A stretch of 64,000 nt of DNA from Escherichia coli (GTDB taxonomy: Bacteria; Pseudomonadota; Gammaproteobacteria; Enterobacterales; Enterobacteriaceae). Below the pieces are notes generated by a model, which saw only the letters and a program-made list of their open reading frames with translations, was not told the DNA's origin and did not search any database. Positions 12,195 to 12,231 of the stretch are shown piece by piece. Within the stretch, counting starts at the first letter, position 1. Each line of letters starts with the position of its first letter. The stretch lies in assembly GCF_003334785.1 (NCBI RefSeq), contig NZ_QOWV01000003.1, one strand, 5' to 3'. The translations under genes were made by a program, and so were the position numbers.

Positions 12195-12231
12195 CTGTAT
12201 ATACTCACAGCATAACTGTATATACACCCAG
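12195..12231 (+). promoter_or_regulatory. tandem LexA operators (SOS boxes) of the lexA-dinF promoter
   Basis: ctgtatatactcacag (12195-12210) and ctgtatatacacccag (12216-12231), both matching CTGT-N8-ACAG, immediately upstream of the lexA ATG. Confidence 0.9.

Follow-up and report, generated by a model that had tools for sequence, protein, structure and literature searches.

Two LexA operators at the autoregulated lexA promoter of Escherichia coli and reported co-transcription of dinF across a probably leaky terminator-like hairpin

The locus described here lies in a 64,000-nucleotide stretch of Escherichia coli DNA (contig NZ_QOWV01000003.1), referred to throughout as the window, and the segment from 11700 to 14300, annotated in the order dgkA, lexA, dinF, matches E. 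coli K-12 MG1655 at 100% identity and occurs as a single copy in every one of 5426 complete E. coli genomes; K-12 coordinates differ from window coordinates by a checked offset of 4244875. The lexA coding sequence (12240–12848, plus strand, 202 amino acids) is defined by its open reading frame, its annotation, and the match of its product to the NCBIfam equivalog TIGR00498 (289.5 bits against a cut-off of 110.95, residues 1–199), of which LexA is a full-length member. The DinF protein is a full-length member both of NF007690, the family named 'MATE family efflux transporter DinF' (907.1 bits; cut-off 409), and of the MATE family TIGR00797 (345.9 bits; cut-off 147.4). Its coding sequence probably occupies 12921–14246 on the plus strand, the choice of start being discussed below. 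Elsewhere in the window, at 15446–16431 and 3′ of zur, two adjoining open reading frames of 84 and 246 amino acids correspond to what PGAP annotates in MG1655 as a frameshifted DUF2713 pseudogene.

The lexA promoter is reported to have two LexA operators (PMC9210283, PMC7440846), and the region upstream of lexA that includes both boxes reads ...TTGCTGTATATACTCACAGCATAACTGTATATACACCCAGGGGGCGGAATG. Operator 1, the upstream SOS box, occupies 12195–12210 (CTGTATATACTCACAG), and operator 2, the downstream SOS box, occupies 12216–12231 (CTGTATATACACCCAG), with the 5-bp spacer CATAA (12211–12215) between them; the placement of the pair at 12195–12231 with 5-bp spacing upstream of lexA, as proposed in the initial annotation, is thus correct by sequence. 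The same annotation described two perfect CTGT-N8-ACAG operators, and this holds for box 1 but not for box 2, which is CTGT-N8-CCAG and carries one mismatch, although both conform to the looser SOS-box core CTG-N10-CAG, which in gammaproteobacteria has a TA-rich middle and resembles TACTG(TA)5CAGTA. The mismatch in box 2 is an A-to-C change at 12228 that creates a Dcm site (CCAGG, 12228–12232) within operator 2, supplying its first C; this CCAGG is methylated in stationary phase without effect on LexA binding or lexA expression, and the downstream operator binds LexA with a Kd of ~15 nM in electrophoretic mobility shift assays (PMC9210283). Reporter assays of the lexA operators have also been described (PMC7440846).

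The lexA promoter escapes a sigma-70 consensus scan, since 8 of 12 positions match the consensus, and the hexamers were therefore placed from published start sites. SMRT-Cappable-seq places the lexA start at K-12 4257086, which is window position 12211 (PMC6131387), while the numbering of the Dcm target cytosines as +17 (window 12229) and +45 (window 12257) (PMC9210283) puts +1 at 12213, and we accordingly give the transcription start as 12211–12213 on the plus strand. The −10 hexamer TATACT (12200–12205) lies within box 1, and a probable −35 hexamer, TTCCAA (12177–12182, plus strand), assigned from spacing, conservation and the published start, is separated from it by 17 bp. With the start site taken from the literature, both boxes overlap the promoter or the transcription start, box 1 spanning −18 to −3 and covering the −10 hexamer, and box 2 spanning +4 to +19 of the transcript; the lexA Shine-Dalgarno sequence AGGGGG (12230–12235, plus strand), 4 nt before the ATG at 12240, overlaps the end of operator 2. 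From these positions, over the −10 hexamer and at +4 to +19, we infer that bound LexA occludes the promoter, which agrees with the literature. Two LexA dimers would sit on the two 16-bp SOS boxes and keep RNA polymerase off the lexA promoter, and DNA damage would lead, through RecA-stimulated self-cleavage of LexA, to freeing of the promoter and an increase in lexA mRNA.

Box 1 is the sole perfect CTGT-N8-ACAG in the 64-kb window, but counts of the bare consensus show no enrichment, either for perfect matches (one observed, 0.54 expected) or for those with one mismatch (18 observed, 16.9 expected), and they were therefore replaced by a weight matrix and a Markov null. The LexA matrix is symmetrised and was built from the SOS boxes in Table 7 of PMC3009722, with the lexA and uvrA boxes excluded. 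Scored with this leave-one-out matrix, box 2 is the top-ranked position in the window at 17.8 bits and box 1 is second at 16.0 bits. A matrix scan and a comparison with the single uvrA/ssb operator had been suggested at the outset as checks on the pair; both boxes pass the scan, and both score above the 15.3 bits of the uvrA/ssb operator.

The promoter region is strongly conserved, both within the species and beyond it. A 76-bp segment, 12170–12245, has the same sequence in 5332 of the 5426 complete E. coli genomes, and in a sample of 80 lexA loci from Enterobacterales species (L002–L081), 79 of them with upstream sequence, two boxes of at least 10 bits are found at the same place in 75 of 79. 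Box 1 is the more constant, its 16-mer being identical in 74 of the 75 two-box loci and every one of its positions at least 90% conserved. The right half of box 2 varies, the forms among the 75 being CCCAG (25+6 loci), AACAG (19) and ACCAG (17); a perfect ACAG is present in 25 of them, and another 25 have the CCCAG form of E. coli (CTGTATATACACCCAG). Across 78 distinct upstream sequences, the only stretches conserved at 90% or more are GGTTCC in the −35 region (12175–12180), both boxes, the GGGGG of the Shine-Dalgarno sequence and the ATG, the remainder of the dgkA-lexA spacer being free to vary. Four loci have a single box of at least 10 bits: in two Photorhabdus species (L061 and L064) the right half of box 1 is lost, with CACAT in place of CACAG, Arsenophonus (L081) has a single stronger box of 23.4 bits, and in L040 the left half of box 2 is lost.

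In E. coli, as in 62 of the 75 two-box loci, the centres of the boxes are 21 bp apart, a distance of two helical turns. This raises the question of whether the operator is doubled so that a pair of LexA dimers binds cooperatively to the same face of the helix and shuts off lexA more sharply or more quickly than a single site would allow. The idea has been raised repeatedly in the literature, and the Hill slopes for in vitro repression of the whole promoter lie at about −2.4 to −2.6, although their confidence intervals are wide (PMC9210283). However, no interdimer cooperativity is seen in vivo, where both operators repress about equally and one strong operator alone reproduced wild-type behaviour (PMC7440846); spacings of 20 bp in four loci and of 19 bp in nine (Erwinia, Pantoea, Tatumella) also argue against strict helical phasing. 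We therefore regard cooperative binding as an unlikely reason for the doubling.

The distance from lexA to dinF varies with the start codon assigned to dinF. An 18-bp gap between lexA and dinF, as initially annotated, is correct if dinF begins at the ATG at 12867, which gives the longest open reading frame (459 amino acids) and is the start annotated in NC_000913.3 (b4044); it does not apply to the start that we favour, at 12921, for which the gap is 72 bp and the product has 441 amino acids. The NF007690 profile has 441 positions, of which 1–440 align to residues 1–440 of the protein started at 12921, and tblastn alignments of orthologues mostly begin at the residue encoded there. Among the 49 loci in which dinF is linked to lexA, 41 have an ATG or GTG at the codon aligned with 12921, whereas only 10 have any open in-frame start at least 10 codons upstream. 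In two loci, those of Escherichia albertii (L002) and of a further E. coli (L003), the sequence upstream of the equivalent of 12921 lacks any open in-frame start, and in the second of them the equivalent of the reference ATG is followed by an in-frame TAA, as read from the sequence. PGAP also places the start at 12921. Profile length, orthologue alignments, the scarcity of upstream starts and the PGAP call together make 72 bp the most likely gap, and the comparative sequence evidence suggests that the reference K-12 start of dinF (b4044, 12867) is probably misplaced by 54 nt, or 18 codons, upstream and inside a terminator stem.

That stem belongs to a terminator-like hairpin at 12859–12896 on the plus strand, in which a stem-loop (12859–12888; 13 pairs, 8 of them G-C, with a 4-nt loop) is followed by GTTTTTCA, and the reference ATG at 12867 falls within it. 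The hairpin is called by a terminator scan; an 80-nt segment at this place folds at −27.9 kcal/mol (z = −3.3), and none of 200 shuffled sequences is as stable. SMRT-Cappable-seq records a lexA-only transcript from K-12 4257086 to 4257766, the end of which is window position 12891, in the U-tract (PMC6131387, Supplementary Data 1). The spacer hairpin thus has a G+C-rich stem-loop, a U-tract, and a published 3′ end within that U-tract, as expected of an intrinsic terminator. The lexA long reads of the same study suggest that it is leaky: in the first data sheet 10 reads end at the site, 6 within 50 bp downstream and 20 read through, while in the second sheet 22 end at the site, 86 within 50 bp downstream and 10 continue, these by a median of 1406 bp, close to the length of dinF (PMC6131387); the order of the sheets as M9 and then rich medium is presumed.

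A second set of published data points to Rho. A Rho termination region with a Rho score of 6.1 has its peak at K-12 4257949 (window position 13074), and DirectRNA-seq coverage across this position falls from 322 to 54 in untreated cells, compared with 288 to 295 in the presence of bicyclomycin (PMC7815308). The lists of dominant Term-seq 3′ ends in that study contain none at the spacer hairpin. The dinF leader and first codons include a C-rich, G-poor stretch (12900–12999, plus strand) in which segments of 80 nt have C/G ratios of 2.1–2.7, no lower than the 99th percentile for the window, and from its composition this stretch could possibly serve as a Rho loading (rut) region. According to both transcript data sets, dinF is attenuated relative to lexA when cells are unstressed, but the two disagree as to mechanism, since the long reads stop at the hairpin, as for an intrinsic terminator, whereas bicyclomycin abolishes the whole of the drop, as expected for Rho. 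We note separately a Term-seq 3′ end 70 nt inside lexA, at window position 12310 (K-12 4257185), that is present in at least two of the lists of PMC7815308 with a low Rho score.

In other genera the sequence of the spacer is unrelated, yet a compact stem-loop is present 3′ of lexA in most loci. A hairpin with a T-rich tail is found in 20 of 50 linked loci and in 10 of 31 unlinked loci, as compared with 5 of 79 coding controls; hairpin free energy discriminates poorly as a cross-species test, with a median of −19.0 kcal/mol after lexA and −16.6 kcal/mol inside the lexA coding sequence, and no Rfam family matches the lexA-dinF region. In four Citrobacter loci (L004–L007) the lexA-dinF spacer is 121–131 bp long (locus position ~3110–3240), and the E. 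coli hairpin is replaced by sequences such as GCCGGATAAGACGTTTGCGTCGCCATCCGGCA, which resemble REP elements. Viewed as a whole, the spacer, with its leaky hairpin, C-rich leader and weakly initiated dinF at 12921, might act as a conserved and tunable attenuator that responds to growth condition or to Rho, a reading that we offer tentatively and consider less likely than not. Were it so, the yield of DinF from each lexA transcript would be determined by the attenuator.

The lexA and dinF genes are on the same strand with the terminator-like hairpin between them, a promoter scan finds no promoter-like site in the spacer, and the matrix scan finds no SOS box of at least 10 bits between lexA and dinF. 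Previous work describes dinF as co-transcribed with lexA and as having no operator of its own (PMC6590174), and in tiling arrays UV-induced lexA-dinF is seen as one continuous transcript (PMC3009722); RNA polymerase occupancy also rises across lexA-dinF in response to methylglyoxal (PMC3739934). DinF is a MATE pump and has been put forward as the first example of a LexA-controlled efflux pump (PMC3327717). Lacking its own operator and promoter, dinF would be expressed only from transcripts that read through the leaky hairpin in the 72-bp spacer, so that it would inherit SOS control at a lower, attenuated level, and the extent of read-through would set the level of DinF. The view that a MATE-type efflux gene is under SOS control is consequently supported, by way of the lexA promoter as previously published, but across a leaky terminator rather than through a simple 18-bp adjacency.

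It could be argued instead that lexA and dinF are separate units, the hairpin being a full terminator and dinF being expressed from a promoter of its own without direct control by LexA. The strength of the terminator-like hairpin with its U-tract is compatible with this, as is the fact that 108 of 118 long reads stop at the hairpin in rich medium (PMC6131387; the order of conditions being presumed), and dinF is unlinked from lexA in 30 of 79 loci. However, those reads from the lexA start that do continue extend by a median that approximates the length of dinF, the UV-induced transcript is continuous (PMC3009722), and reviews list dinF as co-transcribed (PMC6590174); the promoter scan found only weak promoter-like sites outside the spacer, and there is no LexA box near dinF. 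Separate transcription thus seems very improbable, and we retain the interpretation that dinF is transcribed with lexA from the LexA-regulated promoter.

The association of the two genes is nonetheless not universal. In the Enterobacterales sample dinF lies directly 3′ of lexA in 49 of 79 loci, including those of the plant- or soil-associated genera Erwinia, Pantoea, Rahnella and Serratia, and this linkage is absent from the other 30, which include Yersinia, Photorhabdus, Xenorhabdus, Proteus, Providencia, Pectobacterium and Dickeya; dinF is therefore better described as an accessory part of the lexA unit. The lexA-dinF order has been noted previously in enterobacteria and vibrios, with the suggestion that the linkage is specific to gut bacteria exposed to bile (PMC3327717), a suggestion that the linkage in plant and soil genera fits poorly.

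Several other positions in the window resemble LexA sites. The uvrA/ssb SOS box, at 29081–29098 (CCTGAATGAATATACAGT on the plus strand), scores 15.3 bits with a matrix that excludes uvrA, slightly below both lexA boxes, and is situated in the promoter region that separates the divergent uvrA and ssb genes. A match of 15.6 bits at 51958–51975 (AATGGATAAAAAAACAGC), between the start of yjcO and the stop of fdhF, is probably accidental as a LexA site, because it falls on the stem and T-run of the hairpin that terminates fdhF (CAGCCTCC...GGAGGCTG). A third CTG-N10-CAG near lexA, at 12154–12169 (CTGGTTTATTGTGCAG) and upstream of the −35 hexamer, is likely to be a chance occurrence, with a score of 8.2 bits and no conservation in other Enterobacterales. 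A first-order Markov null of 40 Mb yields 0.07 sites of 15.9 bits or more per 64 kb, and a pair of them 16–40 bp apart is expected 1.9e-6 times per window, with none seen in the 40 Mb. Thus although the bare consensus is not enriched and the similar-scoring match near fdhF appears to have arisen by accident, the proposition that both lexA boxes are likewise chance occurrences of an AT-rich palindrome-like pattern in intergenic DNA can be dismissed as having next to no probability, being refuted by the expectation for such a pair, by the near-invariance of the boxes across a bacterial order in which the flanks have diverged, and by the position of the boxes, which coincide precisely with the −10 hexamer and the start site.

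Other elements of the window were recognized with Rfam. SECIS_2 (87 bits) matches at 53687–53741 on the minus strand, where an in-frame stop splits the fdhF frame into open reading frames at 52006–53685 and 53734–54153; this stop is the known selenocysteine codon of formate dehydrogenase H. The small RNA sraL lies at 33051–33191 on the minus strand (153 bits), and five copies of the REP-derived repeat naRNA4 lie on the plus strand, at 220–290, 4449–4519, 40429–40499, 51035–51105 and 51148–51218.

Taken together, we have very little doubt that this locus is the autoregulated lexA promoter of E. coli, with two LexA operators and a co-transcribed dinF. The promoter is the feedback core of the SOS response and a standard example of negative autoregulation, and both the double operator and the coupling of lexA to dinF are already well described. 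What we would add to the cited literature is twofold: the K-12 dinF start is probably mis-annotated, and the spacer can be read as a leaky terminator or attenuator. These are predictions that draw in part on published supplementary tables. The cited SOS literature does not discuss the terminator upstream of dinF, on whose read-through induction of the gene would depend. The probable shift in the DinF start, the imperfect box 2 and the terminator read-through are relevant to the design of lexA and dinF reporters and deletions and to models that derive the level of DinF from lexA promoter activity.

Among known systems, the locus is the lexA promoter of K-12 as described previously, with its operators I and II (Kozuch et al. 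2020, PMC7440846; Brent 1982, as cited in PMC9210283); both operators, the Dcm site within the second of them and the transcription start are shared, and nothing distinguishes the two. The uvrA/ssb operator is of the same motif class, CTG-N10-CAG with a TA-rich core, and has a similar score, but it is a single box that serves the divergent uvrA (26174–28996, minus strand) and ssb genes and has no autoregulatory loop. Other multi-operator SOS promoters, such as those of recN and the colicin genes (PMC7440846), also have more than one LexA box, although the number and arrangement differ. Finally, the genes, their order and their SOS induction through the lexA promoter are those of the published lexA-dinF operon (Kenyon and Walker 1980, as cited in PMC3327717; PMC6590174; PMC3009722), whereas the comparative and transcript-end data suggest that here the two genes are separated by a 72-bp spacer that contains a leaky terminator.
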